Below, one piece after another: positions 35,184 through 60,094 of a stretch of 64,000 bases of DNA (positions are counted from its first letter, which is position 1; each line of letters starts with the position of its first letter). The stretch lies in assembly GCA_965153355.1 (NCBI GenBank), contig OZ231126.1, forward strand, positions 28,644,001 through 28,708,000, in the 5' to 3' direction. The position numbers and the translations under genes were made by a program. The stretch is from Flaccisagitta enflata. Lineage: Eukaryota. Below the pieces are notes generated by a model. That model was not told the origin of the DNA. It worked only from the letters and a program-made list of their open reading frames with translations, and searched no databases.

Positions 35184-35275
35184 CACTCAAAAAAATTTCC
35201 AAAAATACAATAAATAAATATCGTCTGTTGTATTTGAACGGACGTTATTGTATTTTAGATAATACAACGAATTGT
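35184..35275 (+). repeat. Left TIR of the giant element, followed by a TACAA/TTGTA-rich subterminal region to ~35560
   Basis: Reverse complement of 60003-60094 apart from a short mismatched block after the poly-A. Repeated AATTGTA(C/T)AG and AATACAATAATTGTA motifs follow. Confidence 0.9.
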
Positions 35276-36116
35276 AAACCGAATTGTACAGCAGTTGTAC
35301 AGCAAATACACGAGATGTATGACGATTGTATAGCAATTGTATAGGAAAAAACAAAAATTGTATACAAAAACGACGATATTCAATTATTGTATAAAAAAAG
35401 GCGACGATATTTAATTATTGTATTCCATAATTTATACAATAATTGAATAAAAAAGGAGCAGGCAGCGAGCAGGAAAAAAAAAATACAAAAATTGTATTTC
35501 AGCGCCAGAACCCATAGTAAATACAATAATTGTACATTTCAATACAAAAATTGTATAGCTGAAAAGCCAGTGAAAAAAAACCAGCAAAGAAACTACCCTG
35601 ACCGCAGGGTAGTTTCCTTGCTGGCTATAGCAGTTCACTAATACAAGGCCGGATACACGGCAATCCAGTCGCGGACGGTTCGGCCGGAGCAGTACTGCAA
35701 AATTCGGGCGGAATTTATCAATGTGACGGACAGACGCATGGACGGACCGACCGACCGACCGACCGACCGACCGACCGACACGGCAAGGAGTAGAGTCGCG
35801 TGTACGTGACTAATCTTGCCAAGACCATTAAACTGGATCTGACAGTTACTATAATCATTTTAAATGAACGCCCATTGTTCTGACTGAGCTAACAAAATTA
35901 TCACAGGTACTAGCAAAATCAGACACGAACAAATTTGTTGCTTACACAAATCAACAAAACGTGGGAAATAAATGGTTGTAGTTTTTGTTGTTTTGGTTTT
36001 TAATAATAACAAAACAAAAATATCACACTGGAAACAGAAATAAAGAAAACGAATGTAACGATCCCAATATTACAATGCCATAACGTGTGGCATAACAGTC
36101 CATCATACAGTCACTA

Positions 36117-36673
36117 CGCTGTGTTTCACATCAAATTACACAAAAGAAAACGTTGCCATTCGACTATAAATTGTCATAAATCAATTCTGAAAAGAAAATT
36201 TTGCAGAAAAATAGTTCCAATTTTTTATAGAAAAATTTTGTAGGGCTGGGCGGAAAATTTTGATTGCTAAGCCAATTTGAATTATAGTCAATTTTTAGTC
36301 CAATAATAAATAAATATTTAAATTGATTATTTCTAAACAATTTTATTTTTGTTTTTGTACTTCTTTTTTTTATTTGATAGTTTAGGTCATATAATTTGAC
36401 AAAAACGAATTAACAGAATTTTAGTAGCACTGATTCAAAGTTTCTCTGTAAACATCAAATAATGAGCATTTTTAACAAAACTTATTGTCTCCAAAATCTA
36501 AAGATTAATATGAATTGATCTAGAGAACAGAATTCTCAACTCAGCTCTATGAAATTTGGCGTCAAAAAATTGGAACAATTTTTCTGCATGAAACTTTTTT
36601 CAGAATTGATCTAACCTGTTTCAAAGTAAAATGGCAACGTTTTCTTTGGTGTAATTTGATGTGAAACACACTG
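36117..36673. mobile_element. Tc1/mariner-type MITE (557 bp) downstream of gene D
   Basis: TA-flanked; GTGTTTCACATCAAATTACAC..AAACGTTGCCATT is inverted at both ends. Confidence 0.8.
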
Positions 36674-36823
36674 TATGACTGGACGACTAACGCCAAGAAA
36701 ACAGAAATACAGTAAACAAACAAAACGATGTGAATATTACAATGTCATAACAATTTGTTGCATAACGGTGCATCATACGCTTTGCTTAACCATGACTGCC
36801 CGACTACTGACAACGAAACAAGT

Positions 36824-38126
36824 TCAATTTGCTGAGGCTGATGGTGGCGCCGGCGCCGGCGGAGACGGCGGAGGTGGCGGCGGCGACGATGGCGACGATG
36901 GTGGCGTCGTCGGTGAAGGCGCCACTTTGTCCTTGGCTTCCAGCGGAACCACGTAGTGTTCGGAATGTTTTTCTCTGTAGAACCAATCACATGAAAACTT
37001 CTTTACATTTCCGCTACTCAAAATATTAATCTCAAACAACTAAATTTTTACATACAGTAGTCCATTCCATCACCCACCCCCACACGCCTCCCCCACCAAC
37101 AACAAACACAAACATGACTTACATCCAGCATGAGCGGCAACCCTCCTTGGAACAGTCAACACAAAAGATCTCGATCTCTGCATAGTCATGGACGACGCAG
37201 GCCGGTTTGGCGTTCTTCAGCGTCTTAGCAATGATGTTCATCGTTGGAGAACGCACAAAACCCTCCAAGGGAAGCTCCAACCTGCCCATGAAAATAGCAT
37301 ATGTTATAAGTACAGTTGCGAGCATAACAAATATGAACCAACCAACCAACATACATACATACATACATACATACCTACTAAGGGACAGACCCTCTTATAG
37401 ACATGCGAGGACGCATCTAAAAAGAGACATATGTTGCTTTCAAGTTTTTTTTTTCGGCTAGTCTCAGTAGATAAAAACCTCATTTGCATATTGCCGTTTT
37501 TTTGATTAAGTTCGCCCAAACCTGCCTAATAAATAAGAAAAAAAGAGTTTCTCACCCAAATAAATATCGCCATTCTCATGACTACAGAAAAACCATATTA
37601 ACATTGTGAATAAAAAAGTATGAACAAATAAATTAGAAAACCATTCAATTTTAAGGCACGCTTTTGTTTTGTTGGAGGGGATGAACATACACAAAAAAAT
37701 CAAGTGAAATTTGGAATAACAAAACGTCGTCGTCCTCTTCTTCTTGGCAGAGGATGCTAACTGGCAGCTTTGAGCCTTTGACCACCATGTTGGTGTTGGC
37801 CCCCAGGAAGTTAAACCATATGACATTCCGGTTCATTTTCATAAGTGCAGTAGCAATCATAACAAATATCATCCCATTGGGAACAAAATACAACAGTTAA
37901 AGAATAGTTACAACATATGTACAAAGCATCGCTGTAACAGACATTACCTGCAGTGTGGGCAGGACGCGACGTCGTAGACTTCGAAAGCGGTGCCGATGCA
38001 GCCGTAGCAAAAGGGTTTGTGGCATTTCCGGCAAATGTGTGCGTCGGTTGGCAGAGCCAAACATATGAGGCACCGTACATCCAGGATGAGATTGTCTAGC
38101 ATTTCTCGAGGCATCATCAAAGACAT
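36824..38126 (-). CDS. Element gene D: 162-aa RING + B-box (TRIM-like) putative E3 ubiquitin ligase with Pro-rich tail
   Basis: Exons 38126-37948, 37281-37123 and 36974-36824 (phase-2 junctions, 489 nt). RING CLIC..CRKCHKPFCYGC..CPHCR has spacing like the TRIM37 N-terminus. B-box CVVH..FCVDC..GCRSCW|IEKHSEH is split across exons 2 and 3. Confidence 0.85.
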
Positions 38127-38485
38127 ATTTGGAATTTAGTTGTGCCTGTCTGTCAAAAAACAAATGAGTGGAATCTATCACAGCTTGAAGCTTTGATCGG
38201 ACTAAAAATCAGAAATGTATCACAAATGCAGTTTATTTTGATGACAATTTTCGCGATTACGGGAAATTTTCTGTTTTTAGCTTTCGCCCCGCCAAATGAA
38301 AATGACAAATGGGTACGAACGTAAAAGTACTATCGCCGTATACTACTATCTATATTACCACTAAACATCTGGAAGGAATAACCGAAAACGCTGGAGGACA
38401 AAAAACGCCAAAAACGAAAACAAAAAAATCGCTGGAACGCCACAGAAACCACGCCACAAGGTAACAACGCCACAACGGAAGAAAA

Positions 38486-39113
38486 TCAATCGGAATCGAC
38501 AGTGCCTATATCTGGCGATGGAGTAGAGGAGGATCGATCGCCCGTGACTAACGCTCGAGAGTACCTAATCCTGGTCCTCATTCTTTTTGAACCGACGCTC
38601 CAAAAGTCGGAAATCTCAGAGTCGGAGGAGTCCCCCGTCATTTCACCATCAGTGCTTGTCACCAATGTCGGGGAGGATGAGGATGCAGCTAAAAAAAGAG
38701 TTTTTGCAAAGTCACCCACTTTTGCCAGAGACTTTTTTGGCTACAAAATAATTGACAGTGCCATACTGTGCAAACTATATCTGCTTACATGTTCATACAC
38801 CTTGCAACAATATGGATATGTCATTTCTATTAAAGCTACAAAAGTCTCGGGCAAAAAATGGGTAGAATGACTAATGATTAATAATATGGTTTGGCTAAAG
38901 GATAAAAAGAATTTAAAATCTTGACCACTTCTTACCTACGACATTTAGTATGTCTGACAAGGTTTGTCGAACAATTTCCTCGATGTTCTCCTTTTCCTTT
39001 AATTTCTTTTTCTTACGTCTGATGGCAAAGAAAAGCCGCTCGCACGAGCGTTTTGTCTCATGTATGGAAGGGGAGGTCGACTCTGAAGACTCTGAGGCCG
39101 ACTCTGAAGACAT
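38486..39113 (-). CDS. Element gene C: ~142-aa Ser-rich protein with basic NLS-like RRKKKK, function unknown
   Basis: Exons 39113-38940 (donor GTAGGT) and 38740-38486 (acceptor ttttgTAG) join in phase 0. An acceptor-like tttcTAG lies 18 nt upstream of the ATG. No recognisable domain. Confidence 0.45.
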
Positions 39114-39339
39114 CTTATTTACAGGGGGAAACTAGAAACTAGCTAAACATGTTAAATAAGTTGAGAAAAAACATGAAATAGAACCATGAGAAATAAGTTT
39201 AGCATTTTGATGAATTGGATGCGAGCGCAGTAAGGCTGTCATGAGTGATGAGCTGCGGGAATTTTGGGGCAGTTTTGCACTTGATGCTCGGCCATGAGAC
39301 GCTTACTCATCAACATACTGCAGCTCAGCATTCATCACC

Positions 39340-42100
39340 CTAGTCGTCGTCAGTGGTTCGTACGTAAGCCACTGACAGGCCGCCTTTCTCGTCTTCTTCG
39401 TCAATAGCTTGGAGCCGATGGTAGTAACTTTCGGACCGCGGGTCGAGTAACCCCTTTTCTCTGCGGAACTCCATCGCCTCCCTAATGATTCTTTGACGTG
39501 ATTGTCGCATCAAGGCTTCCGTTTGGGACCGATGATGTTTGTTGACTGTCCTCAGTTTGTTGATGTATTCCAGGCGATGCTGGCGACGGCTTATGCGTAA
39601 TTCTGGACTGATTTGGAACGCGTAGCTGCAATACATGGACAAGTGTAATATTAGTCAAACTGTGTTAACAGTATAATATGAGCATTATGATGTAAATAGT
39701 AAAATCTCCATACCATTATATCTACCTAATGAGAAGCAACATAATCATATATTATCATATCGCATAATCATCAAAACAGTAACAAGAACAATAACAATCA
39801 ACACTACAATATTCACACTTACATTTCCCAAAAATTCCAGTACGCATCCAGCGTGACGCGGTAGCGGTCTTCATCTGTAAGGTCAATATGGTACATCCGT
39901 AGAAAGGACATGGCGTACGTGTAGAGGTTTCCTCTCACATACACGTCTCGCGTCCCAGTCGCATCGTCTGTTGGGGTTATCCTCCAGCGGATTTTCTTGT
40001 CGAAAGACACGCCGAGATCCTTAGAGCGAGTATGCGGATCCTTCCTCAACAACACCACCTTTGGATGCGTGGACAGTGTCGTTTCGTCATCGAGGACGTC
40101 GAACATGATCTGAAAGACGACAGAGCTGACTCAATACATCATTTGTTGTAAGTTAAAAACAATGATGAGAGTTTTTTAACGGGATAAAAATGAGATTATG
40201 CATCTATATGAACACTACACATTTATACATTTATTGTTTTATTCGTATACATTTTTTTTTTAAAACTTCATTACAATTTTTGTTTAATCTCAACGGCAAT
40301 TCTCACATGTATGAACACAACAAAGACATGTCAAATACCTGCACGGGGGGCACTGACAACATCTTCCGCAACCACGTTTCAACGTAATGACCGTGGTAAG
40401 GGTGCGGTCTTCCATTAGGGTCGTATTCGACCTTCGGGAAATCGTCCATTGCTTTTGGAAAGAGAAAGTGCTGCAATTCCGACATGCCCGACGCCGCTAT
40501 GTCGTAAACGTCGTTGGGCGTTTCTCCTTTGATCTGAATGATGCTGTGGTACTTGAAGATGTAGTTGATGAGTTCGTTCGTAAAGTCCACTTCGAACAAA
40601 AATGGCAAATATCCACGAGGATCCTAGTGGTGGGAAAGGGAGGTCAGAAATCCAAATAATTATCCAAATGACATCATCAAAATGACACTATCAAAATGAC
40701 ACTATCAAAATGACTCTGTTATATGTACATCCCAGTGTTAATCCTTACCACTACTGGGTTTTGGCCTAAGACGTTGACTGCACTGCTGAATAAAAGCATG
40801 AATGAACTTCTTTGGGCCCGATACTCCTTGGTGACGGGGCCCTCGTCCTTTGGCGCTTTTGGTCGCTTCTCCATCAATTTCATCAGGAGTTCCTTTTCTT
40901 TCGCAAAGGTTGTGTGCCACATCGTCACCTCGCCGGGAAACGCCAGGTCCAGACTCATTTTGATGAACTGAGGGCGTTATTACAACATATGAATTGTGTC
41001 AGTCAGTAATAAGTAAATTGTTTCAAGTTAACATGCAAAATGGACAAAACCAGCGCAACTTACCACTAGTGTGGACTCACAAGTCAACCACTGATAGGCC
41101 GCCACGAAGCGTGCATGACCGGGTGGTCTGTAGACGTAATTGTAGAAATTAGTCGGGCGATCCTTCGGCGCGTCTTCAATTCTCTTCCAGACTTCATTGA
41201 TTTGGTTTTCTGGGGGTTCCTCGCGGCCCTCCTTTTCAGCACTGTTCCTGACAGCCTTGGAGAAGCTTTGCTTCACGATCGCAAGGGGTTTGGCCGTTGG
41301 GACGGGCGTATCGATAGGGGCGTATTGCCTTTCCCGCGGTGCCGATGATTCATTTGGAGTCTCCATTGGCGTTATATCGCCAAGCACAACGCTGTAAAAA
41401 TAAAGAAATTTTCTTGGTTGGTTATACAATATGAAGAAAATGCCTTGTCGTTTTAGTACACAATCAAATGTCACAACTCACCGAGGAGCCACATCTTCCA
41501 TCGGATCCGTTGAGCATGACTGTGGATCCATTGCACCGGAATCCATTCCTGTAGTCGACGCCACTGAGGTTAAATTGCCAGGCCGGGCGGTGGAACTGCA
41601 AATGTGCAAAATACGAAGCAGTGAAATAAATGCAAAACATTTCTCTATAATATGTTTCACTGGACACAACAATTTTGCAATTTGTCCCAAAATACCTTGG
41701 AAGACGAACGGCACGTTTCCTACGGGACCGCGAGCCATCCACTAGGTTGCCTAACCGATCATTTTCGGCATCGTCAGGCGGGCTGGGTTCGTCAACGGTT
41801 TCGCCACCACGAGCGGCGTTGAAAATTGATCCCGTGGTACTCGCGACGCGACGCCCCGATCGCGGAATGGGTGGCGCACATCTGAATCAAGAATGTTATT
41901 GTTGTTGTGGTTGTTTTGGTTGTTGTTTTTCTTGTTGTTGATTTTCTTTTTCTTGTTCTTGTTTTTCTTGTTCTTCTTCTTCTTCTTCTTCTTCTTCTTG
42001 TTCTTCTTCTTCTTCTTCTTGTCTCTGTTGTTGGTGTTGGTGTTGTTGTTGTTGTTGTTGTTATTGTTGTTATTGTTGCATTGTTATTGTTATTGTTGTT

Positions 42101-42161
<61 letters not shown>

Positions 42162-43062
42162 TAAATTTTCTGTAGTGTATTGTAGTAGTTTACCCTCTTT
42201 TGTTTTTCGTCACGCCAATCGATTTGCTCCTATCTTTTTCAGCTTCAGCAGCGCGATTTGAATGGGGCCGAGGACGGCTTTTCATTTTGTTGCCGTCATC
42301 GCTGTCTCGTTGCTCTGCATCATCCGCCTTGACCAACCCGACCAACTCGTCCAACTGTGCGTCGTCGGTTTCTCTATTCAGTGCTTCGAATGTGGTCTGT
42401 GATTGGCTTGTGCGAACGGGAGTACAGTTTGGGGAAACCCCTCTGAAATAATACAATGAATATAATTTACGACGACCTACCAATTTTGTGAGTTATATGT
42501 ATACAATCAATGTGCGGTAGTTGGTAAGGATATTCAAAGATCACCTCACGCCGTGAGAGCCGCCAATCCTAGCTTCGTTGGACGTGTTCTTTGCGGTGGA
42601 TGATTCATTTGTGGCGGTTGAACCATTTGTGGCACTTGATGATTCGTTATTGTCGCCCACGGAGTCAGCGGTCGACAAGGGGGAGCGGATTGCTCCATAT
42701 ACGTTTTTGTCGCTGGCCCGGCTTGTGAGGTTTCCACCACACTATCAGGAAAAGTGATAGTCGAACATTATGTCAGTCTTCTAACATTATTATATGTTTC
42801 GGTTATTGATTGTAATGCATGACTATTAGGTTGGGTCCACCATGACGATTTTAGAAACACTCTTGCTCCAAGCACTTTTCATGTTCCTATCATATAGTTA
42901 GAGTCATATCTACTTGTAAAATCCATTATGACAAAATTTCGCCAGACCGTCATTGTTATTTGTACAGTGAATTTTAAGGAAAAAACCCCTTTTTTTTTCC
43001 TCAGAAAAAAAAATGTTTTCTGGGTGCATGGCCACTTCGTAATTGCGCGCGCTTATTGTGCT

Positions 43063-43131
<69 letters not shown>

Positions 43132-46053
43132 TCTTTATTGGACTAAGCGAATATCAGCCTGCACAGTTGAGCTTGAGGCCGGGTGGGTAGGCCGGAGGCC
43201 TATCTAGCAGATTTGAGGCCTTGAGGGCTGCTTTGACGTCTTGGAGGGCCAAACTTAGGCCTGAGTGCTGAATTGAGGCCCCAAAAGCAAGACGGGGGGG
43301 GGGGGTGAAAGAACAGACGTAGGAAATTCAACCCTGTGTCCTTCTGGACATCGGCCCTTTTGACCGCCACCCAAAAAGACGGACAGTCAGACAGAAACAA
43401 GACCAGGGGCAGTGTTTAAAGTCACTAGAGTATTTGGGCAGGAGCAGTGAGGCCAAAGACCGTACACTGAAACAGGTCGCCTGAAAGTAATCTGTGGTCA
43501 GTGATACTATGCTTTGCATGATTGTGAATTGGAATGCGAGTAGGCAGGGCAGCGGCCCCAAAAGTGTAGAAGTCCTGTAGAACACAGAGGGACTTTCGTT
43601 CTCCCTCCAGATTTTAGGCCTGAGAGGGCAGAAAAGAAGTTTAATAGTCACAAAAGCGTTAGATGGTCAGCGGTGCCTGTGCCCTGCTTAAGAAGGTTGT
43701 GGTTGAAGTTGAGGGGGGAGCAGGGCAGCGGCCCCCAAGGGGTCGATGACCTATGCTTTCATACATATGGGGAAATTTCTCCTTCTCCTTCTCCTCCTCC
43801 TCCTCACCCCCCTCCCCCCAGCCTCAAGGCCCATATCTCAGCCAGGAGGCCCATATCCCAGCCTCGAGGCCCAAATCCCAGTCTTGAGGCCCAAATCCCT
43901 AGAGACTGGAATTTGGGCCTTAGGGTTGGGATTTGGGCCTTAAGGGCGGGATTTGGGCCTCAAGACTGAGATTTGGGCCTCGAGGCTGGGAAATGGGCCT
44001 CCAGGCTGAGATATGGGCCTGGAGGCTGCGGGGAGGGGGGGTACGAAGAAGGAGGAGGAGAAGGAGAAAATTCCCCATATGTGTGAAAGCATAGGTCATC
44101 AACCTCTTCGGGGCCGCTGCCCAAAAGGGCTTATCATGGGCCTCAGGCTGAGAAGTCATAGATTAGGTTTGAAAGGCAGATTTCAGGCCTGAGAGGGCAG
44201 ATTGCAGTCCTGAGAGGGCGGATATCAGGCCAGAAAGGGTAGATTTCAGGCGAGAGAGGGCCGATATGAGGCCTGGGAGGGCAAATTATGGGCCTGAAAG
44301 GGCAGATTCCAGGTGTGACAGGGCATATTTAAGGTCTGAGAGGCTTGATGGGAGGGGGGAAATACTTAAGCTGCCTTATGTTGTACAGGACCTCGTCCCC
44401 TTTGGGACTGCTGCCCAGAAAGTGAATAGTCGCAAAAGCGTCAGATGGTCATCAGCGGTACCCGTGCCCTGCCTAAGTAAGTTGTGATTTGAGTTGAAGG
44501 AAGATGCAGGACAGTAGCCCCCGATGATGCATGCTTTCACACATGAGTAAATTTCTCCTTCTTCAAGCGGTTGGGATTTCGGCCACTTTTGGAATATGAT
44601 TTAGGAATTTAGGTCTAAGAGTTGGGATTAGGGCCTTGGGGCTGGGATTTTAGCCTTGAGGCCAGGGGAGGGGGGTGGACGACGAAAAGGAGCGGGACAA
44701 ATTTCCTCATGTGTGAAAGCATTGGTCATTAGAATGGGCACAAGTTGGGAATTTGAATGAAACATAATTTCCAAGCACTTTTCTTGTTCCTTTTGCATGT
44801 TAAGAGCCCAATCTCTTTGGAAAATCGATTTGGGCTTGATCTAGACACTCCGTCACTAATGCTGTAGTTGTATAGATTTGATTGCTGGAGTCAGGAGAAA
44901 AATTTCTTCCATAGTAATGCTATGCAACTACAGCATTGATGACGGAGTGCCTAGATCATGTCCAAATCGATTTTCCAAAGAGATTTGGCACTTAATATGC
45001 AAATGGAACATGAAAAGTGCTTGGAAATAATAATTCATTCAATTGCCCAAATTGAGCCCACTCTATTGGTCATCTGCACCCTTGGGTTTACCATCGACGA
45101 AGAGGAACAGAAGCAAATTGACTCAATGATCAATTCGATGATGCTATTTCTTTAGATCAAACTAAAAACCCTATTCCCGCTATTTTATGTTGGAAGGTTC
45201 GTCAAAGAAAGAGTGAAGTTGCCAAAAAGCTGGTTGATGCGCCAGTGCCCTCCATCACAGCATGGGAAAATTTACATTCATAAGCGGAAGTCCGACAGTA
45301 CGTGTCTATGCCCCTTATGATTGATGTTCCCTCAATCAAACATATACAGTAGATCTCGTCTAGACTTGAGATAACGGGGGCGAGCATTGTAGGAAAACAA
45401 ATAAAGCTAGGAGAGTGATATTTCAAACATAGACTAATAATGGGATGCTTTATTGCCCATGATAGCTGGTTGCCATGGAAACACATTTCTAAGTATTCTC
45501 GCTAAAGTATCAATATTTTGAGAGATTTTTTTAGGGAACATTGCTTAAAATAAAATTTGCTACAACTTTCCCACAGTATGTTCTGTAAAAATGTCGCTCG
45601 TTTAGCGGTTGCTAAGGGTTGTCACACATGGAAACGCTCTCTAGCAACGGCCAAACGAGCGACATTCTTACAGAACATACTGTAGGAAAATTGTAGCAAA
45701 TTTTATTTTAAGCAATGTTCCCTAAAAAAATTTCTCAAAATATTGATACTTTAGCGAGAATACATGGAAATGTGTTTCCATGGCAACCAGCTATCATGGG
45801 GAATTAAGTATCCTTTGATTAGTCTATGATCTAAATATCGCTCCCCTGCCTTCATTCGTCTTTCCACAATGCTTGCCCCCGTTATCTCAAGTCTAGATGA
45901 GATCTACTGTATAGTAATTCGTACAAATCAGCGCGAAGGTTGGCATCAAATCAGCGTCCATCAAGGCAGGAGATATACTATTAGCAAGGCAGGAATATTC
46001 AGAGAAGTAAAGCAAGCAAAGCCAAAGGGAAAAATGTAAACACATACAAGAGG

Positions 46054-46093
<40 letters not shown>

Positions 46094-46172
46094 AAACAAC
46101 AACAACAACAATAACAACAACAATAACAACAACGATAACAACAACAATAACAACAACGACAACAACAACGAT

Positions 46173-46218
<46 letters not shown>

Positions 46219-46294
46219 CGGCCATGGCAGCAAAAGTAGAAACACAGACAGTTGTAACAACACAAAAGACAACGGCAATAACAACATCAACATC

Positions 46295-46334
<40 letters not shown>

Positions 46335-50297: not shown

Positions 50298-50311
50298 GTT
50301 TTAAGTTTATC

Positions 50312-52955
50312 CTAAGTCAAGTCCAAGTTCCTTACACTTATCACGTTTAATCTGTTTGATTCGTTGCATACGTGGTAATCTTGGACAAGAACGAGAGAAG
50401 GGACTAATAATTGCCGCTGAACACTTGAAGTTGATTCTCTTACTTTAAATATGCCCAATTCTGTAATTGGGAGAGCCGTTAACTTTTTGGAAAGGAGGAT
50501 TATGTCTGAGTCACTTTGGGCAATGCCTAGGATTCTGAAAAAACGCCCATCTGGCTCCCCATCTATATTGGGCAGGCCATAAACCGAGTTGAGGTGAAGC
50601 ATGTAACCGTTGTGCTCAACGGTTTTGAGGCACTCAGCCGCTCTATAGCCTTGATAAAAAGTTAAAGCTTCATGTGGTAAATCTTCTTCATTTGTTAAAC
50701 GACTAACCTTCCTTGGTTCAATGATTGCTTGACTGCGCGCATGTAGTTTCAAGTCAATTCTTCGGAGAATAGTGTATAGAACGTTCTTTGTGCAACGAGA
50801 GTTTCCAAAAGCTCTCTTGACGAACTGGTGGAATTGTTCGCATAATGAAGAACTCTGTAGGGACAAAGGGCCTGCCAACCGAATTGCTCTTGGGTAATGG
50901 CACAGATTATGCTCTTTATATTTTATTTTGGGATCATACTGTCCATCTGCGGTTCTGGTGAGACTCATCCTCAAAGTCAATGTAGTTACTATCGTTTCTT
51001 CCATTTCTTGTAAAGTCTCGTTTGTGTGGTTTAGAGTGAGAAGAAGTCGACTTAGATACAAGACTTGTAAATAGAAGACCCAAACAGGGTCAGCCGTGTT
51101 TCCAATGACCGGATAGAGTACAGTGCTGAACAGAAGAATAAATGTGCGCACGTGTGCGACTTTATTACATATACGGACTGTTTTCTTCGCCATGTCAAAC
51201 TTGAAATAAGGACGATTTTTTGAATCATGGCCACGGAATTTGAAACGTTTCCACAAACTTTTCATTGAGGAAGCAGAGATCCATTGTAAATCGAAAACGA
51301 TTCTATTAGTGATGATTGTCATCCAAGTTACTGCGCAGCCAAGGAAGAAGTCGTGGTGGAGATCTAATGAAAAGGTAGTCTTGTTCATGGGGAACCATGG
51401 AATGCGATGTAAAGCAGGCACATGAGTAAAGCCATACGGAAGCATTAAGTCATTTGCTTCTGCTGCAATGACATCAATATATTCTTCAGACGTACGCGGT
51501 GCAGCTGGTGCCATATCTTGCACAGAGTTAGGAGTTACTAAATCCGCCATACGGAAATGGCAATATCTACAGGATTTCCCACTTGTCCATGATCGTGTTA
51601 TCCCACAGAGTTGGTTTTGGCTCAGGTTATCGCCGATAACCATAAAGAATCTGACTTGATAGTGGTCACCGTTGTATGTAATGCCATTTGAGACAACATC
51701 TCTCAGTCGAGATACAATTGCCTCAGTTATGACCTTCAATCCCACTTCCCCCACATCTTTTGTGTAGAGTAGGCATAAAGGGAAAACTTGTTCCAACTTG
51801 CGTTGGTTTGGTCCTTCAATTAAGATAACTATATAAAAATTATATAACTTATAATTGGCGTTACGGGCATACAACGCCTGCAACGGTAAGACCTCATCAC
51901 AGTACAAGCCCAGAGGAATTACAGGTTCACCAGAGTGGATGGCAATGTCTCTAAATATTTCAGAATTTTTAATCGAATTGAACTGGCCGGCCGTGATGGG
52001 TTTCTGATGAAATTCTTTCAATCGATTGCAATTGTCTTTACTTTTCAACCATAATGTCAACATTTCGTCGATTTTGTAAAAATGCACTTGGACATTTTCG
52101 TCCAAAAGTATATCGTTTCTTATGGGAAGAGTTACACTTGCACGATAATTATTTTGTAATTGTTTCTGTTGTCTTCCACGACCATAACTGGTTCTGATTT
52201 GGTTCATGCGTTTTTTCTGTTGTTGTGATAAGTTACATTGCAGGGCATTGAGAATACTGATTGTTTGTGATACAACGTAGGAAATAAGACATTCCGTGGC
52301 AGCGTATGTATTCGTCATTTGGTGTACAGTTTCCTCCATTATTGTAATTACATGTTCTGGAATGATACCACCACCGCATCCACCACCACCGCCACCACCA
52401 CCACCACCACCACCACCATCACCACCACCACCACCACCACCATCACCACCACCACCAACACCACCACTTGAATTATTCTCACCAACATCCTCCCAATGAT
52501 GAAGAACAAAAACATCTCCCTCGTCATTGTCAACAACTTCATCATCCTCACTATCTTCTGAATCGGATTCCAATATATCATCGACGTCCTCCTCCCTCTC
52601 CTGCTCCTCTTTCCATAAAATATCACCTCGATCCCTGTGAAAGTCGAGATGTGGGACGCTTGTTGCGCAACGTTTATTTGTGAGAGCCTCATAGGGGCAT
52701 ATTTGGTGGCTTGGCTCAACAAATTGGTAGTGTAGTTTGAGTGCGTTATAGTTTTGTTGGTCAGTGTAAAAAGGCAGAGATTCCTGACACACAGGGCACT
52801 TGTATATGCGTCTATAGTGTTGGTCGACGTGGGTTTCAGCAGATACAAAGTCTGTCGTTGTTGTCCTCTTGTGGCAAAGGGCGCATACGGGCCTTCTTAC
52901 TTTGTTTTGACTTTTGAATAACAGTTTGTCAATGAGAGTCTGTCGTAGAGTCATT
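50312..52955 (-). CDS. EnSpm/CMC-type DDE transposase, main exon (~880 aa), with two N-terminal C2H2-like fingers
   Basis: Uninterrupted ORF. Motifs typical of animal EnSpm-like transposases: LGLYCDE, FFMVIGDNL..NQLCG....SGKSCRYC, DLHHDFFLG, KEHNLCHYP..I...GPL.....CEQFHQFVK. N-terminal CALCH..H..H and CPVC..H motifs and a poly-Gly linker. Acceptor ttttgctgaacAG lies directly before 52955, with ATG at 52954. Confidence 0.9.
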
Positions 52956-53093: not shown

Positions 53094-53618
53094 ACATTGA
53101 CATCCACTCTACTGAACCTGTAATTGCAGTGGGCCTAATTGCCATATACAACTTGGACCAAATGTTCCTTTTGCCTCAACTTTACCCAAAAACATGCAGG
53201 GGAATCAGGGTCATTGCCGCCAATCTCTCGGCAAATAAAGTATCGGTGGACCAGTGGGAAATCCCAACATTCTTATATGTATAGCAAATGGCTTCATTCA
53301 TGTGCCTGCTTTCCAGGGCATTTCAAATTTCAACATGAACACGACTACCTTTTCATTGGATCTCAACCACAACTTCTTCCTTGTCTGTAAAGTATGTTGG
53401 ATGACTACCATTAACCCATGATTCAAATCGTCCTTATTTCCAGTTTTACATGTGGAAGAGAACAGTACGTATTTGCAATAAAGTCGCACACATGCGCACA
53501 TTTATTGTACTGTTCAGCACTTTACTTCATCCCAAAAAAGATACTGTCCGAATATTAATCATACATACATGATACAGACAGAGCAATTCGGCTGGCAGGC
53601 CCTTTGTCCCTACAAAGT
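53094..53618 (+). pseudogene. Inverted, internally deleted patchwork copy of the adjacent transposase CDS
   Basis: Plus-strand pieces translate to IDIHSTEPVIAVGL, VIAANLSANK, WTSGKS, GFIHVPAFQGISNFNMNTTTFSLDLNHNFFL, HDS-NRPYFQFYMWKRTVRICNKVAHMRTFIVLFSTLLHP and RAIRLAGPLSLQS. They are collinear with transposase 51948 to 50851. The last block differs at only 2 of 40 nt. Confidence 0.9.
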
Positions 53619-53792
53619 TTTTCATTTGGCGAATAATTTCATTTTACAGTTCTCAATGCACAAAGAACAATCAAGCAAGCAAGCAAGCAAGCAATCATTG
53701 ACTATGTTTTATGTAAAAACTGCTAATTGGTTAACAATAACCAACAGTGAATGAGAACAGGAATAAACAAGAGATGATGAAAAGTATACTAC

Positions 53793-54160: not shown

Positions 54161-57100
54161 TTACAACGGAATGGGTGGCGGTTTTAACGAGCTAATTTGT
54201 GTGGTATTGGGAGGCGCCAATGAAACCGAGGAGTTGGACGCCATCACAGATGCTTGGGACGCGTTTTCAAAAAAAATCATTAAGTCCTGAGCGTCTTCTT
54301 CATATTTGGTCGCCGCCGATTTCTTCCCACCTCTTCCCCCCCTCGCCGACTTCCCTCCCCGCTTCCTTCCCCCCTCCCCCACCGCTGATTTCGCCGACGA
54401 TTTATTCGGAGTCGCAGTGGTCCCATGGGGTTTAGCAGTCGAAGTCGCCTTGTTTGGTGTTCTGGGTTTGGGAGGCCGACCCGCCAACTTCTTCTTTGCT
54501 TGTTTTGTGTCCTTTCCCGCATCACCCTCCTCATCGTCGTCATCCTCCACCACCTTAGCGGACAATCTTTTTTCTCGGGTAGAAAGACGAAACGATGCGC
54601 GTCTTTCATGGTCGTCGGCGAACCGGTATCCCGCGTCTGATTCCACCTCGTCGTCCATATCGTCTCCAACGCTGGGACGGCAAGAAGAAACGCTGGAAGT
54701 GCGAGAAGAGACGCTGGAAGAGCGAGAAGAACCGTTGGAACGCCGGGTCAACAACGTTGAGCCATCGTCGTCAACGAGAGGAATTTCCACCATGTCTGTA
54801 CCTAACGACAATGGTGAAACATTGATTAATACATTTTGTTTTTGTTTTGGTATTACATGGTGGACACAATAGTTTGTAGTCGTGCAAAATCTAATTAATG
54901 TTTTTATTTATCTTATCCGCGACTGAGGGAAGTTTGGGCAATACAATTTTTATATTGGGCACGACAACCATTCCATCGCACGCGTCATGTTCAATACAAC
55001 CATTGTATTGCGCAAGTCGTGCTGATTTAGACGATAGAATTGCACGAGTCGTGCTAAATACAACCATTGTATTGCGCAAGTCTTTCTGAGTAAAACGATA
55101 GTATTGCACGAGTGAATCAGCACGTCCATAACATGAACGTCTGATTAATAATTCTAACAATATAATTAGTAATTAATAATACTTAATAATTCATAATTCA
55201 TAATTCATAGTTCATAATTCATAATTCATAATTCATTATATTATCTTTATTGATACTGTCCTTGTTAGAATTATAAATTTTTAATGATTAATTATTACTT
55301 CTTAATTATCAATTATTAATTATTAATTATTAAATATTAATTATTAATATTAATTCTAAAATTTTAATTAGTAATTATTAATTATAAGTTGTTAATTGAT
55401 TATTAATTACTAAATTATCAATCATTAATTATTAGTTATTAATTATAAATTATTAATTATCAATTCTTAATTCTTTATTGTTGATTGATTAATTAATTAA
55501 TTATTGATTATGAATTATTAATTAATCAATAAACAACTAATAATTAAGAATTGATAATTAATAAGTAATAATTATTAATAAAAAATTAATAATTCTAACA
55601 ATGACAGTATCAATAATGATAATATTAATACTAGTAATAATAATACTTTTATTTACATGAGTAATGAGAGGCAAATGAGCACACCTGCTGCGTTCACAGG
55701 ATTTGTGAAATCCGGAAGCGGAGAGCAGGATCGCGAATTCTGAGGACGCGGAGGCGTAAGCGCAGGAGGAGTAGGCGCAGCAGACGTTGAAAGCGCAGGA
55801 AGCATAGGGTTAGGCGTAGGCGCAGGAGGTGTAGAAGGCGCATTATGTGGCGGCTGCGGAGTAAGAGATTCTGGTGGCTGAGTTTCAGTCGGGGAAGCCG
55901 TAGATGGCGGTGAGGAAGCGCGCGATGAATTGCGTGATGAGTTCAAGCTTAACAGCAGATTTGCGCTTGAGACATCTTGATTCGACAGATGCAACCTCGC
56001 CGGCCTCGACACCGCCTCACCCAACGGGACCGTAATTTGTAAGCCGTGATGATGTTCGGCGAAATGGGTTTGTAAAGCGGCGGCGTTGTCAAAATCGATG
56101 AGACATTTGTCACAACGGGCCTTTGACTGCCAATTTCCATTTTCGTCCAGTGCATTGGGGCCCATATTCGCCACGTCATGCGTAAGGGTCTCCACCTCTC
56201 TGTCATTGTCCTCGTCATTTCCTACGGTCGAGTTGTTTCCAGCGTTGCTACCACCGGAGGCACCCGCATCACCACCCGAATTTGACGCGGTAGAGGAGTC
56301 GTCGTCATTTCCTACGGGCGAGGTGGTTGCAGCGTTGCTACCACCCGAAGCACCCGAAGCACGAGGCGAAGTCGATGCGGTAGAGGAGTTTGGATCTATG
56401 TCGTCCGGGACTGATCTTAAAGAGTCATTGTCCTCGACGAAATTTTTTACGGGCGAGTTGTTTGCAGCGTTGGTACCACCGGAAGCATCGGAAGCGCCAT
56501 CTGAATTTGATGCGGTAGAGGTGTTTTGATCCATGGCACTGGGGACGTGGGTCCCAGCCGAAGTCGAAGTCGACGCGGTGGAGGTGTTTGGCTGAGTGAC
56601 GCTCGGGACGTTGCCACCACCTGTAGTTCCACCCGAAGTAGACGCAATAGAACCCGTCGTTGATAATGCTTGTCTCTGCACCGAGTCCACAATGAGGCGA
56701 GCTGTAGAACAGTGAGAAACATTTATATAAGAAATAACGAGTACAATTTTGTTTTTGTTAAAAACCGAGTTTGTAAGAACACCAAGGCTTTGAATCGCCC
56801 AAAAATTATGAACATCTTAAGAACATACAAAGGCTTAAAATCTTTAACCAAATTTGTGGGTAATGGTGATATTTAAAGAATCCTATGAAAACAGATGACT
56901 TGCATTATAATTTAGGTTAATATTACATATGTTGTACTAACATTGATCTAATATGCATATTGTCATTTTATGATGACTGGTCTTGTGTAACTTATTTGAT
57001 TAGAAAGACTATGAGTTTCTATTTACAATACAATGATAACTGCAACGTTTATATTGTGGAGTAATAAACGTAAATCTTTGTTTCATGGAAAACTTCACAA

Positions 57101-59291
57101 CATGCTCATGTATTTCATCTAGCCAACGGTTGAAAACTGCATAGTGATGATTAAAGTAATGAAAAAAAGAATTAACTCTGGAATTCGTCGCTTTCTACCT
57201 TTTCGCAATTTCGACATATGTGCGGAGGTGGAAGCCGGTGTGGGCTTTATTTTTCCAGTTAAACAATGTATATCACTGGGAATTTGTGTGGCATTGGGAG
57301 GCGCCAATGAAACCGAGGAGTTGGACTATTCAATAAAAATAAATTTGTTTGGAGTTAATAATAGTAATTTAAAAGGTTACTTATACTGAATAAAGCATAT
57401 AGAATAAAGAACGTGCTAAGAACGTTTAAAACTTCATTTGCTCTAAAACATGATAACATAAAGCCTTAGAAAAAAAAAACATTGTTATAATACTCCAAAA
57501 ATAAAGCGACATTTAACGCATATGGTGTCGTTGGAATCTCCCCATCTGGATTGACAAACTAACCTAGGACTGCTTTCTGACGTTCATGAGGCGGCATGGA
57601 TTTCACTGTGCCATCTTTTTCGTGATAGATGACGCTGGTTGAGGGCACACGCAACTCGCGTTGTTTTCGGGTGACGGACTCGGGGGTGTCATTCCGATTG
57701 TCGGACAGGCCGAAGAGAACGTTGTTTGTCACGAGAAACGCGTCGAAATCCTCAAGCCACAATTTCTGTTAAGGGCAAAGGGCAAATACAAACACATTAA
57801 AGAAAAAAGATATTTTAGATGTTTGTGTTTGTAAAAAGAATCCCTTTAACTAAACCCGGGCTAACAGAGAAAGACAAATACACTTTCAGTTTCTAAATGA
57901 CCTAGTTCATAAGAACATCGTGGCAAATAGAGAGCCAGACTGACAAACAGGCAGACAGAGACACAGACACAGACAAACACCGAAACGGAGAAACGGGTCA
58001 AACACAGTCACGTACACCCTCATTTACATATACTTGCGCGAATCAAAACAAGGATTTACGTGGACCCACCTGACAACTTGCGATATAGTGACCAATTAAC
58101 CGCGCCGGTTTCCCAGCAGGAAGAATCACGAACAAGGCCGGTTCATTATGGGGGAGGTATCCAGCCGCCCACATTAAAACGTAGCCGTTAAACATGAAGT
58201 GAGATTGAACGCTGGGATCAGGTATCGGAAAAGTGGCAAGGTCTGTGGGAAAAAGAGAAATAAAACATGTAAAATAAGTTTTATTTTACTAGTAGCTATA
58301 TTTCTTGAATCGATTGTAAACTTGATTGTTCCCCAATTAGGAAGAACATGTCTTTCAACATGTCTTCCTAGGAACAACCTTAAAATAGAACATGATGAAC
58401 ATGTTTTCTTCCGGCAATGGTCACTTCAAAAAATATAGGAATTAACGAATGACGACTTAAAAGTATTTTCTTCGTCATTCTTAACTACTATTCAGCTGAA
58501 AATGGTTTAACAATTACAACAAACTAATAGTTTTTCCTATGATTCCATTTTCTCCCTTTCACAATCAATTAAAAAAAAATTATATTGACTCATGGACAAA
58601 GGGCTTTGATTAGTCACCGCAACATTTTCCTTTGATTTACACTGCGATATGCAAATTCTTTTACTACGTTTTTAAAACGGTATAAGTAATTGCCTTGACC
58701 TTTACAAACGGGTTGAACTCTTGAAAAGGCACTTTTTATTGCTAAGAAGAAACAGAAACCGGTTTAATGAGACCAAATTATATTAGCTAAAGTTTTAAAA
58801 GTGTTACACATCGAATTATGCATTGTTAATAAACAAAGTTTCGAGTAATATGGATGGCCAACTGTTATCTTATGATGTCCGTTTGCCGATTACATCTCGA
58901 TTACATCATCCCAAAAGCTATTGAGTGGCTTCAAGGCCAAAAATGAGTTCTTATATAAGACAAAGTATAAGCCTTGTAGCACTCACCGTAGTCTTTGTCA
59001 AATGGCTCCATGGTTTGGTAGACGACAACTTTGTGACGGCTACGTGAATCTTTCTCGACGGCTTCCCGACGGCTTCGCGTTGAGAAGATTTGTTGCAGCT
59101 TCGCGACTTTTTGCTTTATGTGAACAGCGCAGTTTTTAAAAAGCGACGTAAAATCTTTCGTAATCTGTCGATAAAAAAGAGGTTATTACATTTGGGCAGC
59201 GTTTTCCCCGGGCGCGTATAAAAAAAAAAGCGTATCCAATTTTTTTTTTTCGTACGTCGATGTTCAGCCTCTTCCTGATCCTCTTCCTCAT
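54161..59291 (-). CDS. Element gene A: ~748-aa low-complexity protein with one C2H2 zinc finger and an AT-hook-like/RGG basic region
   Basis: Frame-consistent GT-AG exons 59291-59256 (uncertain), 59164-58987, 58242-58070, 57765-57564, 56701-55685 and 54801-54161. Contains CDKCLIDFDNAAALQTHFAEHH, LAGRPPKPR, GRKRGGKSARGGRGG, repeated SSTASNS/ASGGSNA peptides and a Pro-rich tract. The start codon is uncertain; an alternative is accATGG (MEPFDKDY) near 59011. Confidence 0.65.
55150..55650. repeat. Extremely AT-rich, partly palindromic intron segment in gene A
   Basis: TTATTGATACTGTC(C/A)TTGTTAGAATTAT at ~55247 is inverted at ~55589-55616. An inner inverted pair TAATTATCAATTCTTAAT / ATTAAGAATTGATAATTA spans 55454-55560. 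Confidence 0.7.
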
Positions 59292-59540
59292 CCTCTTCCT
59301 CTTCCTCCTCCTCTTCCTCTTCCTCTTTTTTTTTCCTTTTTCTGAATCTGCGATCGCGACTGAGGGTAAAGTAACAAAAGAGCAATATAATGTTTCACCC
59401 ACGGAGGGCGTCTTTCCTTGATTGCAGCGAAGCGAGAAACAAAAGAACAAAATCGGACTCTATTTCTGCGCAAAATACAATTTTTGAACAAGCTTGAAAC
59501 TTTACGAAAATCTGGTTTTTTTTTCGTTTTGCTTGAAAAA

Positions 59541-59825
59541 GTTAGAGTCCCCTAAATACAAAAATTATATTGTTCATGGACTCTAATTTTTTTTTTGGTG
59601 GTCTGGAAAATTTTAGAGTCTGTAATTACAATAATTATACTGTTCCTGGACTTTAACTTTCTGTTTTCGAGGGCCGAAAAATTTTAGAGTCTCGTAAATA
59701 CAATTATTAAACCGTTTTTTGACTCTAATTTTTTTTCGCGATGGCCGAAAAAGTTTAGAGTCTTTTAAATACAATAATTATACTGTCTATGGACTCGAAA
59801 ATTGCCTTTTTTTGGCAGAGTCCAA
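59541..59825. repeat. Subterminal array of four 71-bp units, each AGAGTC-N~29-GACTC(T) around a TACAATAATTATA-like core
   Basis: AGAGTC starts at 59544, 59615, 59686 and 59757 (exact 71-bp period), each followed 34-35 nt later by GACT(C/T). A partial fifth half-site lies at 59817. Confidence 0.8.
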
Positions 59826-60002
59826 ATTTTTTAATAATTGTATTTTTGTTTAAATAATTGTACAGCAAAGAGACTCGGTTTCTCGGTCATCTTCCCGATA
59901 CATTTTTTGTTTTTTTTGCATTTTTTCGGGGGAATCAGTACAATTATTGCAATTGCTATCCAATTCGTTGTATTTGCTGTACAATTTGTTGTATTTGCTG
60001 TA

Positions 60003-60094
60003 CAATTTGTTGTATTAGCTGAAATACAATAACGTCCGTTCAAATACAACAGACGATATTTATTTATTGTATATCGTCCTTTTTTTTTTGAGTG
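60003..60094 (-). repeat. Right TIR of the giant element
   Basis: Inverted copy of 35184-35275. It is preceded by tandem 21-bp TGTACAATTTGTTGTATTTGC-like units (59960-60015). Confidence 0.9.

Follow-up and report, generated by a model that had tools for sequence, protein, structure and literature searches.

Maize En/Spm elements produce, by alternative splicing, a transposase (TnpD) and a protein that binds the element ends (TnpA), and Transib elements have target-site duplications (TSDs) of 5 bp. TSDs of 3-4 bp are described for Chapaev and Chapaev3, that of Chapaev3 being TWA (PMC4079192), and the CMCT clade as a whole spans 2-5 bp according to PMC12730594. The same paper reports CMCT-clade transposons that carry an extra enzyme gene, the extra genes there being TET/JBP, and describes ESTA from rust fungi (PMC12730594). 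CACTA/EnSpm-type elements that end in CAC…GTG and have a 2-bp TSD are known from animals, for example ENS1_Cis of Ciona savignyi, as described in PMC6004678. Enlarged En/Spm families of 16-20 kb with 4-5 ORFs are reported from Chondrus crispus, a red alga (Kojima et al. 2013, as summarized in the review PMC6431247), and the same review gives Pack-MULEs, plant CACTA elements and Helitrons as DNA transposons that capture gene fragments.

Here we describe what is probably a large transposon of the cut-and-paste type, one copy of which, assigned to the CACTA/EnSpm–Mirage–Chapaev group (CMC, or CMCT in the wider sense), was found in a 64-kb stretch of DNA (the whole of which we call the window) from a marine eukaryote, probably an animal (Table 1). 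Its additional reading frames would be accessory or captured sequences rather than a proven functional payload of five genes. An animal host is plausible from the TRIM-like RING–B-box gene and the marine runs. The preliminary description suggested that the element may stand for an undescribed lineage, which overstates its novelty because large En/Spm elements with several ORFs, animal CACTA elements with 2-bp TSDs and CMCT elements with an extra enzyme gene have all been published (see above).

Table 1. Features of the element and its immediate flanks (positions in the window).
Feature	Position	Strand	Details
TA abutting the left end, putative 2-bp TSD	35182..35183		one copy only
Whole transposon copy	35184..60094		length 24,911 bp
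Left terminal inverted repeat (TIR), opens CACTC	35184..35310	+	end sequence, alignment, core count, blastn
Left subterminal region	35184..35783		repeated TTATTGTAT / ATTGTATTT motifs; 31-bp tandem repeat (35357-35423)
Short interspersed repeat fragment, also in flanks	35640..35813		74-80% to 16757-16914, 5102-5244, 60542-60635
RING–B-box mini-gene, three exons	36824..38126	-	38126-37948, 37281-37123, 36974-36827 + stop
Exon-sized ORF run, no family	38916..42767	-	e.g. 40306-40623, 39822-40130, 39343-39654, 41031-41477
Nested hAT-like non-autonomous element	42827..46749		TIRs TAGGTTGGG… / TAGGCTGGG…
Further exon-sized ORFs, no family	46767..48488	-	48144-48488, 47844-48077, 47076-47327, 46767-46949
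Nested Tc1/mariner-type MITE, 975 bp	48686..49660		TIRs CAGGGTTTTTCACGCC…; TA at 48684-48685, 49661-49662
Small basic/acidic ORF (P0004)	49587..50300	-	ATG 15 nt past transposase stop
Transposase gene, 880 aa, single uninterrupted ORF	50312..52954	-	ORF, profile, fold
Inverted, internally deleted piece of a related transposase copy	53288..53751	+	81-89% to 50829-51435, opposite strand
Ser-rich acidic/basic ORF, AT-hook-like GRPPKPR (P0003)	54161..54907	-	no Pfam match
AT-rich tandem repeats between two upstream ORFs	54978..55594
C2H2 zinc-finger gene (gene A)	55653..57217	-	ATG 57217; exon 1 to 57199; exon 2 56701-55653 (P0002 ORF)
Right subterminal arrays	59535..60021		71-bp x3.7 (59535-59796); 21-bp x4 (59938-60021)
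Right TIR, closes GAGTG	59969..60094	-	end sequence, alignment, core count, blastn
TA abutting the right end	60095..60096		pairs with TA at 35182-35183

The element opens with CACTCAAAAAAA… and closes with …TTTTTTTTTTGAGTG, that is, with the 5'-CAC…GTG-3' termini of CMC/CMCT elements. Aligned to the reverse-complemented right end, the left end has its first 12 nt in common with it, then about 10 nt that are different and then a long near-identical stretch, the identity by local blastn being 88.7% over 106 nt (35205-35310 against 60072-59969). A core of 51 nt is identical in both TIRs and occurs exactly twice, in inverted orientation, in the 64-kb window with up to three mismatches allowed (shuffled controls, 0/100). 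There is no third or fourth end core in the window, and we therefore take the two ends to pair with each other. A 36-nt end pattern had no match in metagenome_contigs. Subterminal repeated motifs, a mark of EnSpm/CACTA elements in the narrow sense, are present at both ends, and 9/9 and 8/9 of the copies in the element of the 9-mers TTATTGTAT and ATTGTATTT lie in the outermost 600 nt at the two ends.

The TA found on both sides may be a TSD of the 2-5 bp kind described for CMC/CMCT elements; it is seen on a single copy, and a 2-bp match has a chance of 1 in 16. The 3-bp flanks (CTA and TAA, in this one copy) do not match as a Chapaev or Chapaev3 duplication of 3-4 bp would, nor do the 5-bp flanks (CCCTA and TAAAT) match as for Transib. 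A search for a paralogous empty site within the window returned self matches and microsatellite matches only. Since neither a second copy with other flanks nor an empty site for the whole element was seen, the putative TA duplication and past mobility rest on one copy. This is also the sole point in favour of taking the two ends for parts of two separate elements with host genes enclosed between them, a possibility that the preliminary description had raised itself and that we find barely credible, as the core is found just twice, inverted and TA-flanked both times, no partner end lies near either of them in the window, the subterminal motifs are the same at both ends and a transposase of the matching superfamily lies in between. 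The paired CACTC/GAGTG ends with their TA flanks were thus described correctly.

Part of the length is due to later insertions. The hAT-like element is flanked by an 8-bp TSD, ATGACTAT (42819-42826 and 46750-46757), and is absent from the contigs of two other DNA runs, X6 (from a named organism) and X1 (a marine metagenome), in which 42818 is joined to 46750, skipping 3,931 nt with 8 letters shared. The preliminary estimate of about 5.6 kb of nested insertions is consistent with these 3,931 bp, the 977 bp of the MITE including TA and some smaller repeat pieces. Once the two verified insertions are subtracted the element measures about 20 kb, slightly above the 19 kb or so given before, and the length is unusual as had been stated.

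The transposase has C2H2 fingers at the N-terminus, followed by an acidic/poly-Gly linker and a DDE core (D368, D457 and E721, with C477xxC480 and H697xxxH701; numbering on the 895-aa ORF), and is colinear with a relative of 908 aa (P0009). The profile search recovered 2,533 relatives at E<=1e-3, 1,055 at E<=1e-10 and 18 at E<=1e-30; in viral_contigs, metagenome_contigs and genome_contigs the transposase profile had no relative. Eight close relatives in the protein collection have identities from 97 to 44% (97, 89, 79, 70 and 55-44%). In an alignment of 60 family members D368, D457, H549, D550, K695, H701 and E721 are invariant, and C477, R478, C480 and H697 are conserved in at least 90%. The DDE triad in an RNase H-like core, seen in the alignment, the model and the fold match, and the C(2)C and H(3-4)H motifs (C477-x2-C480, H697-x3-H701) are features of the CMC/CMCT transposases.

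In the AlphaFold model (pLDDT 83, pTM 0.77) D368 and D457 lie on strands or at their ends and E721 in a helix. The best Foldseek matches were RAG1 (E 2.3e-11, ca. 620 columns), BbRAGL (4.5e-7) and HzTransib (5.4e-6). When the PDB was searched by sequence, the N-terminus matched pairs of C2H2 fingers (E 2.8e-14), and there was no match for the catalytic core, neither RAG1 nor Transib being retrieved. Pfam was similarly silent, with no family for the transposase itself (P0001) at E<=0.01, which thus lacks the Transposase_21 or DUF4218 match of EnSpm/CACTA in the narrow sense. Among the 60 relatives Transposase_21 (tnp2) was hit in eight (best 1.1e-4), DUF4218 in two and Plavaka in two, all below the cut-off, and the Atlas feature neighbours include some clusters with PF02992, PF06869 and PF18759. 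Membership in the CMC/CMCT clade is supported by the motifs and by the RAG1/Transib-like predicted fold, even though Pfam is blind to it. The EnSpm/CACTA-like identity first proposed holds in the form of a TIR-bounded CMC element with a predicted fold closest to RAG1/Transib. We have here a transposase branch, related to RAG1, for which there is no Pfam model yet thousands of relatives in public data.

There are also signs of a family with other members. The inverted transposase fragment within the element has a tail that resembles the odd C-terminal tail of a truncated relative, P0008 (12 of 17 residues).

The contigs of X6 and X1 were compared over 36900-56899, an interval that includes all the genes, the element ends lying outside it. 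They keep the same order and differ from the window by 0.5-4.3%, the divergence being 0.5-0.6% in the transposase core versus 1.8-4.3% in the regions of the extra ORFs; one X1 contig (record 1) covers exon 1 of the RING gene together with the ORF region that follows (37432-39044). The share of words of about 0.5 found in all the DNA runs that carry the stretch fits a divergence of ca. 2% over the whole stretch (0.98^31 ≈ 0.53), and we set aside partial presence of the stretch as its cause. Contig depth was alike over the RING gene, middle ORFs, transposase and upstream ORFs (ca. 1,900-2,400 in X6 and 17-30 in X1). Copy numbers taken from these depths (ca. 2,000 and 20-30, respectively) were rejected, as depth is not copy number and there is no single-copy baseline.

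In another reading the element no longer moves and is a relic, fixed or single-copy, or has been domesticated, and the other runs would show allelic variation at a single locus of a marine species with high polymorphism. X6 and X1 each have one or two contigs at the variant places listed for element-specific sequence, within the above range of divergence from the window, the hAT-like insertion varies in presence as an ordinary polymorphism would, and divergence in the transposase core is 4-8 times lower than elsewhere, as it would be under purifying selection at the level of the host. However, both the TIRs and the subterminal repeats are preserved intact, the element contains a diverged transposase fragment, and the protein collection holds many relatives at graded distances plus a truncated derivative, all of which makes a relic or domesticated locus improbable in our view.

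All the ORFs of the element are on the minus strand between the two ends. In the RING–B-box model the introns (666 and 148 nt) are both GT..AG and in frame, and the 162-aa product has the B-box2 pattern straddling the junction of exons 2 and 3. Its Pfam matches are below the cut-off (zf-RING_2, E 2.7e-4; zf-B_box, E 2.3e-3), and Atlas RING clusters score 0.95. The TRIM/RBCC order of RING, B-box2 and coiled coil is not found in this spliced model, in which a Pro-rich tail and the stop follow B-box2. Most likely the gene derives from a TRIM-type host gene whose 5' part was captured. For gene A a model in which an ATG exon upstream is joined in frame to the C2H2 ORF is plausible, the predicted intron (57198-56702) being GT..AG. 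Six related metagenome proteins of 342-353 aa, 86-95% identical in the finger region, keep the ORF open with indels in frame. Pfam searches with 20 ORFs of the element gave only the sub-threshold RING and B-box matches and a few others at chance level, and the several extra ORFs, among which a TnpA-type second gene may lie, have no recognisable family. Some of the middle ORFs can be chained through splice sites in frame (e.g., 40623-40339 / 40109-39823 / 39625-). Such chains are expected by chance with so many candidate sites, and for this reason they were discarded as evidence.

Could all of this be a functional cargo? The preliminary description proposed five spliced genes (transposase, TnpA-like, C2H2/AT-hook, small basic and RING–B-box) as the payload of what may be a cargo-rich CMC lineage; on this reading all five would be functional and travel together in every full-length copy. 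The common strand, the gene order kept in the contigs of two other DNA runs at similar depths, the C2H2 ORF open in six relatives and the two in-frame splice models speak for it. Nevertheless, depth does not measure copy number, and apart from the sub-threshold RING and B-box the extra ORFs have no Pfam family. The small basic ORF is cut by the MITE, inside which its last 26 codons or so and the stop are found, and other runs have a 7-8-nt insertion in the tail of the AT-hook ORF (54241-54243) and a 1-nt indel that strikes the ORFs at 42.5-42.8 kb. The extra ORFs are also more diverged than the transposase core (see above), one of the middle ORFs (40306-40623) has a single relative (P0162, 87/95 residues identical, i.e., 92%) versus transposase relatives down to 44%, and, in a small and selected sample of listed substitutions, the residue changed in 4/5 within the RING exons and 3/3 in two middle ORFs. 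The divergence, the AT-hook indel and the 8/95 differences of the middle ORF are best read as weak constraint on the extra ORFs; some of these genes may be functional, to judge by the in-frame C2H2 indels and the intact RING–B-box exon structure.

The RNA libraries bear on the same question. Contigs from them ran straight through each of the predicted splice sites that they crossed, being colinear with the DNA at the donor at 37947, the intron 37122-36975 and the acceptors at 39625 and 40623. No splice junction of the extra-gene models is among the 15 joints listed out of 569, and RNA runs appear in two of those 15, one a repeat joint and the other on the opposite strand. The metatranscriptome runs X12 and X17 gave contigs of 217-440 nt at depths of 3-6 over ORFs and non-ORF stretches alike; metatranscriptome libraries may contain DNA, so we draw no conclusion about transcription. 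Of the five spliced genes, then, the transposase ORF is certain, the RING–B-box model holds as an in-frame structure, the C2H2 gene is plausible, the AT-hook and small basic frames exist as ORFs and the TnpA-like region consists of exon-sized ORFs without a family, while the splicing itself finds no support in the RNA contigs. That the five travel as one functional set seems doubtful to us.

We favour a transposon whose mobility, past or present, would be driven by its own 880-aa DDE transposase. The N-terminal fingers and the RAG1-like core would bind the CAC-terminated TIRs and the AT-rich subterminal repeats, and the element would be excised and reinserted at a TA dinucleotide, which would be duplicated. 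The transposase strand carries lineage-specific frames, with the C2H2 gene and the AT-hook ORF upstream and, downstream, the acidic/basic ORF, the orphan exon-like ORFs and, at the far end, the RING–B-box gene, all of them best taken for sequences, accessory or captured, that are under weak constraint. A TnpA-like helper that binds the ends might be found in one or two of them at most, the C2H2 and AT-hook DNA-binding proteins.

As it stands, the element is a well-preserved mobile element of an ordinary kind. Being complete, with its two ends, subterminal repeats and intact gene, this copy is of use as a reference when such elements are annotated in marine genomes and metagenomes. Should the extra genes turn out to be expressed and carried by every copy, the element would extend the multi-gene enlarged En/Spm from algae and plants to animals and provide an example of a cut-and-paste transposon with a TRIM-like E3 ligase module. 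A bolder version, which we hold to be unlikely, is a CMCT family of ca. 20 kb in an abundant marine animal that, beside its RAG1-fold transposase, has stably recruited a host-type RING–B-box ubiquitin-ligase gene and zinc-finger/AT-hook genes for DNA binding and expresses them off its own strand as true cargo, e.g., for binding the ends or blunting host silencing, a multi-gene cut-and-paste lineage new to animals.

With Transib, RAG1 and ProtoRAG the element shares the CAC termini, the C(2)C and H(3-4)H motifs and, in its predicted fold, the best structural matches, but the 5-bp flanks differ and sequence searches do not return RAG1 or Transib. Like maize En/Spm it has subterminal motifs at both ends and, around the transposase, several ORFs of the same strand for which a common transcript is conceivable, whereas Pfam gave neither a TnpA homologue nor a Transposase_21 match above the cut-off and the flank repeat is 2 rather than 3 bp. 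The TRIM-like 5' gene part with introns inside the element (RING, B-box2 and an unrelated Pro-rich tail) is reminiscent of the gene-capturing transposons in the review cited above; here, in contrast, the element also keeps its own transposase. Compared by description only, it resembles the animal CACTA element ENS1_Cis in the 5'-CAC…GTG-3' termini, the 2-bp flanking repeat and the CMC transposase signature, and differs in being a far longer, multi-ORF copy, the putative TSD being seen on this one copy. The CMCT elements and ESTA likewise have the TA flanks, the RAG1 likeness (here by predicted fold), the C(2)C and H(3-4)H motifs and, in some, an extra gene; the extra ORFs are here zinc-finger, AT-hook and RING–B-box ones, not the TET/JBP described for that clade. 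As for the enlarged En/Spm of Chondrus crispus, the host belongs to another kingdom and the comparison is one of size and ORF number, not ORF content; the superfamily is the same, and both the size (ca. 20 kb net here) and the number of ORFs are comparable.

The two ends of the element read as they had been reported in the preliminary description, with the TA dinucleotide outside both (Table). When the left end is aligned with the reverse complement of the right one, the first 12 nt agree, about 10 differ and a long near-identical stretch follows; local blastn gave 88.7% identity between the inverted ends over 106 nt. Both ends have in common an identical 51-nt core, which occurs exactly twice in the 64-kb window when up to 3 mismatches are allowed (no third copy was found at this threshold), and 0 of 100 shuffles gave a match. 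Since no further end copies are found nearby, the ends belong together as a pair, as had been proposed, rather than to two separate elements, and they delimit 24,911 bp. Subterminal repeats are present at both ends of the element: all nine copies of the motif TTATTGTAT in the whole element, and 8/9 copies of ATTGTATTT, fall within the terminal 600 nt of either end.

Table. Features of the element and of its flanks (window positions).
Feature	Position	Strand	Details
Left end	35184		starts CACTCAAAAAAA; TA immediately outside
Right end	60094		finishes TTTTTTTTTTGAGTG; TA immediately outside
Tandem array	35357-35423		31 bp unit; near left end
Tandem array	59938-60021		21 bp unit; near right end
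Tandem array	59535-59796		71 bp unit; near right end
Transposase, longest ORF	50312-52999	minus	
Transposase gene	52954-50312	minus	880 aa
Gene A (C2H2)	ATG 57217; GT donor 57198; acceptor 56703-56702	minus	in-frame join to 387-codon ORF 55653-56816
AT-hook ORF (P0003)	54161-54907	minus	Ser-rich, acidic/basic, GRPPKPR motif
Middle ORFs, exon-sized	38.9-42.8 kb and 46.8-48.5 kb	minus	
RING–B-box gene	exons 38126-37948, 37281-37123, 36974-36827	minus	GT..AG introns, 666 and 148 nt
hAT-like element, non-autonomous	42827-46749		3,923 bp; ends TAGGTTGGG… / TAGGCTGGG…
Tc1/mariner-type MITE	48686-49660		975 bp; CAGGGTTTTTCACGCC… inverted repeats at both ends; TA flanks (48684-49662)
Diverged transposase copy, inverted fragment with an internal deletion	53288-53751	plus	81-89% identical to 50829-51435
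Smaller repeat pieces	35640-35813 and 56752-56923		
Inverted-repeat arms	49-332/4001-4284		99%
Inverted-repeat arms	1038-1219/3821-4002		99%
Inverted-repeat arms	1329-1631/3441-3743		97%
Inverted-repeat arms	1646-1918/2540-2812		96%
Inverted-repeat arms	2822-3128/3134-3440		85%
20-bp satellite arrays	373-929, 6075-6410, 16360-16570, 43794-44047		consensus CCCAGCCTCGAGGCCCAAAT
Short interspersed repeat	4855-5301, 11134-11560, 16757-16914, 27774-28172, 30803-31237, 35640-35813, 60431-60730		

In the longest ORF, the methionine at residue 16 lines up with the point where a 908-aa relative begins, so we take the transposase gene to begin there and to be uninterrupted. A Pfam search of this protein returned no family, and scans of viral, metagenome and prokaryote-genome collections gave no match. 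A word-indexed protein search recovered eight relatives (97, 89, 79, 70, 55, 54, 53 and 44% identity), all from ENA-sourced assemblies. Their profile matched 2,533 proteins at E<=1e-3, 1,055 at E<=1e-10 and 18 at E<=1e-30; the transposase thus forms a small, distinct branch within a very large family. We aligned 60 mostly full-length members, chosen from 150 listed profile matches plus the close relatives. D368, D457, H549, D550, K695, H701 and E721 are invariant among them, and C477, R478, C480 and H697 are at least 90% conserved, exactly the signature given for EnSpm, Mirage, Chapaev, Transib and RAG1 (Kojima 2025, PMC12730594). Pfam matches of these members, all below the curated cut-offs, were to Transposase_21 (tnp2; 8/60), zf-C2H2 (7/60), DUF4218 (2/60) and Plavaka (2/60), and the Atlas feature neighbours of the transposase include clusters with PF02992, PF06869 and PF18759. 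A sequence search of the PDB matched nothing but the N-terminal pair of C2H2 fingers (E 2.8e-14). The AlphaFold model built on the 60-member alignment is confident (pLDDT 83, pTM 0.77), and its best solved-structure match is RAG1 (E 2.3e-11, ca. 620 columns), with further matches to the amphioxus RAG1-like protein (E 4.5e-7) and Helicoverpa Transib (E 5.4e-6). The element is placed in the CMC/CMCT clade by its CAC…GTG termini together with the motif signature and predicted RAG1-like fold of its transposase.

An 8-bp duplication, ATGACTAT, flanks the hAT-like element (42819-46757 with the duplication included). This insertion is absent from contigs of an organism-labelled DNA run (X6) and a marine metagenome (X1), in which 42818 is followed immediately by 46750 (8 letters shared at the joint); it is either an insertion polymorphism or specific to this copy. 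It is full of other repeats, including an inverted repeat with 272-nt arms at 45343-45913. The MITE belongs to a repeated family, as seen from the many contigs per place in its bins of the DNA runs. Without these two insertions the element measures ca. 20.0 kb, close to the ca. 19 kb net size estimated earlier. A high-copy repeat piece also lies inside the first intron of the RING gene. The tail of the inverted transposase fragment matches (12/17) the aberrant C-terminus of P0008, a truncated relative of the transposase in the protein collection, indicating that diverged and truncated family members existed in this genome. The 525-aa P0008 has an unrelated terminal tail (…QFSIHKQQASEQASKQ…) that recurs in the inverted fragment (53482-53751, plus strand), which points to a shared deletion derivative that spread.

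Outside the element, the nested, long and near-perfect inverted repeats at 49-4284 together make up a palindrome or foldback structure of ca. 4.2 kb. The 20-bp satellite recurs both in the flanks and inside the nested hAT-like insertion, and a short interspersed repeat with a (GTCG/GTCC)n-type microsatellite has many copies on both strands. No obvious host gene was seen in the transposon flanks within the window.

Among the extra reading frames, the gene A ORF encodes one C2H2 finger in a Ser/Thr/Pro-rich protein. Its six relatives (342-353 aa) are 86-95% identical over the queried finger region; over the whole alignment, identity to the ORF is 92-93% for five of them and 73% for the sixth, whose N-terminal part lies in a different frame and so lowers the value. 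The relatives differ by in-frame indels, and the frame is likewise kept by a 9-nt deletion that other runs have at 56340. With these in-frame indels, the C2H2 gene is the strongest candidate for a genuine accessory protein. In the AT-hook ORF a 7-8-nt insertion at 54241-54243 in other runs means that the 3' end is not conserved in frame. This indel directly adjoins one copy (54194-54239, the end of the ORF) of a duplicated 46-nt segment (97.8%), the other copy of which (57281-57326) is preceded by an AG and lies a short way upstream of the proposed exon 1 of gene A. The AT-rich subterminal motifs suggest that the C2H2 gene or the AT-hook ORF may have a TnpA-like, end-binding role. The small basic ORF (P0004) starts 15 nt after the transposase stop, and its last ca. 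26 codons and stop come from the MITE; had the MITE not inserted, the frame would reach a good donor (…AGAG/GTACGT). If P0004 is a gene, it is broken in this copy. Pfam found no family in the exon-sized middle ORFs, and a search with one of them (40306-40623) gave a single relative, identical at 87/95 residues. The RING–B-box model gives a product of 162 aa, with a C3HC4 RING, a B-box2 pattern that needs the joining of exons 2 and 3 to be complete, and then a Pro-rich tail and stop. Its Pfam RING and B-box matches are below cut-off, and the Atlas placed exon 1 among RING clusters (0.95). Unlike TRIM proteins, the product has no coiled coil. We read the gene as the 5' part of a TRIM-type gene, probably captured, or else as a small RING–B-box gene.

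Eleven DNA runs, two from one coded organism and the others marine metagenomes from several studies, shared 0.42-0.56 of the words of the stretch 49500-57500; three further DNA runs shared 0.13-0.28, and two metatranscriptome runs 0.33 and 0.15. By our own calculation, a share near 0.5 is expected at ca. 2% divergence for 31-letter words. We also compared the region 36900-56899 against contigs of two RNA and two DNA runs. The DNA contigs cover this region and keep the order of the window. The transposase core differs from them by 0.5-0.6% (9/1589, 5/959), the RING gene surroundings, the N-terminal transposase part and the upstream ORFs by 1.5-2.1%, and the middle ORF region by 3.1-4.3% (49/1592, 62/1782, 31/728). 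Residue-changing substitutions were 4/5 in the RING-gene exons, 3/3 in two middle ORFs and 1/3 in the transposase, counted among 40 listed of 554 differences, a small and selected sample. Contig depths, which are not a copy number, were similar across all element-specific bins of each run. The contigs of the RNA libraries are short and shallow, lie on ORFs and non-ORF stretches alike, and are colinear through the predicted donor at 37947, the intron 37122-36975 and the acceptors at 39625 and 40623; there is no splice joint among those listed for 36900-56899. Splicing and expression of the gene models are therefore not confirmed, and the spliced genes of the preliminary description were not borne out at any of the predicted sites that these contigs cross.

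The best-supported reading is that of a complete CMC/CMCT transposon of ca. 20 kb, possibly still competent, with a RAG1-fold transposase. In this reading it carries accessory ORFs specific to its lineage as well as a RING–B-box module acquired by capture; the hAT-type element and the mariner MITE inserted into it later. The transposase is several times less diverged than the rest, which fits selection on the transposase alone during the spread of the family, as well as weak or no constraint on most of the extra ORFs.

The 2-bp flanks of this single copy match (TA on both sides), and a TA target duplication is putative, resting on one copy. Chapaev and Chapaev3 have duplications of 3-4 bp (TWA for Chapaev3; PMC4079192), which the 3-bp flanks here (CTA / TAA) do not fit, nor do the 5-bp flanks (CCCTA / TAAAT) fit Transib. 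An animal CACTA element and MITEs related to it are reported to have a 2-bp duplication (PMC6004678), and TA duplications are given as the defining feature of the fungal ESTA lineage (PMC12730594). The element had been proposed to be an undescribed, cargo-rich kind. This overstates its novelty; already published are large multi-ORF En/Spm families of 16-20 kb with 4-5 ORFs in a red alga (cited in PMC6431247), the well known capture of gene fragments by DNA transposons (PMC6431247), and CMCT elements with an extra enzyme gene (PMC12730594). The interest would be greater only if the extra genes turned out to be cargo that is conserved and expressed in an animal; the element is a new family of an already known sort of transposon.
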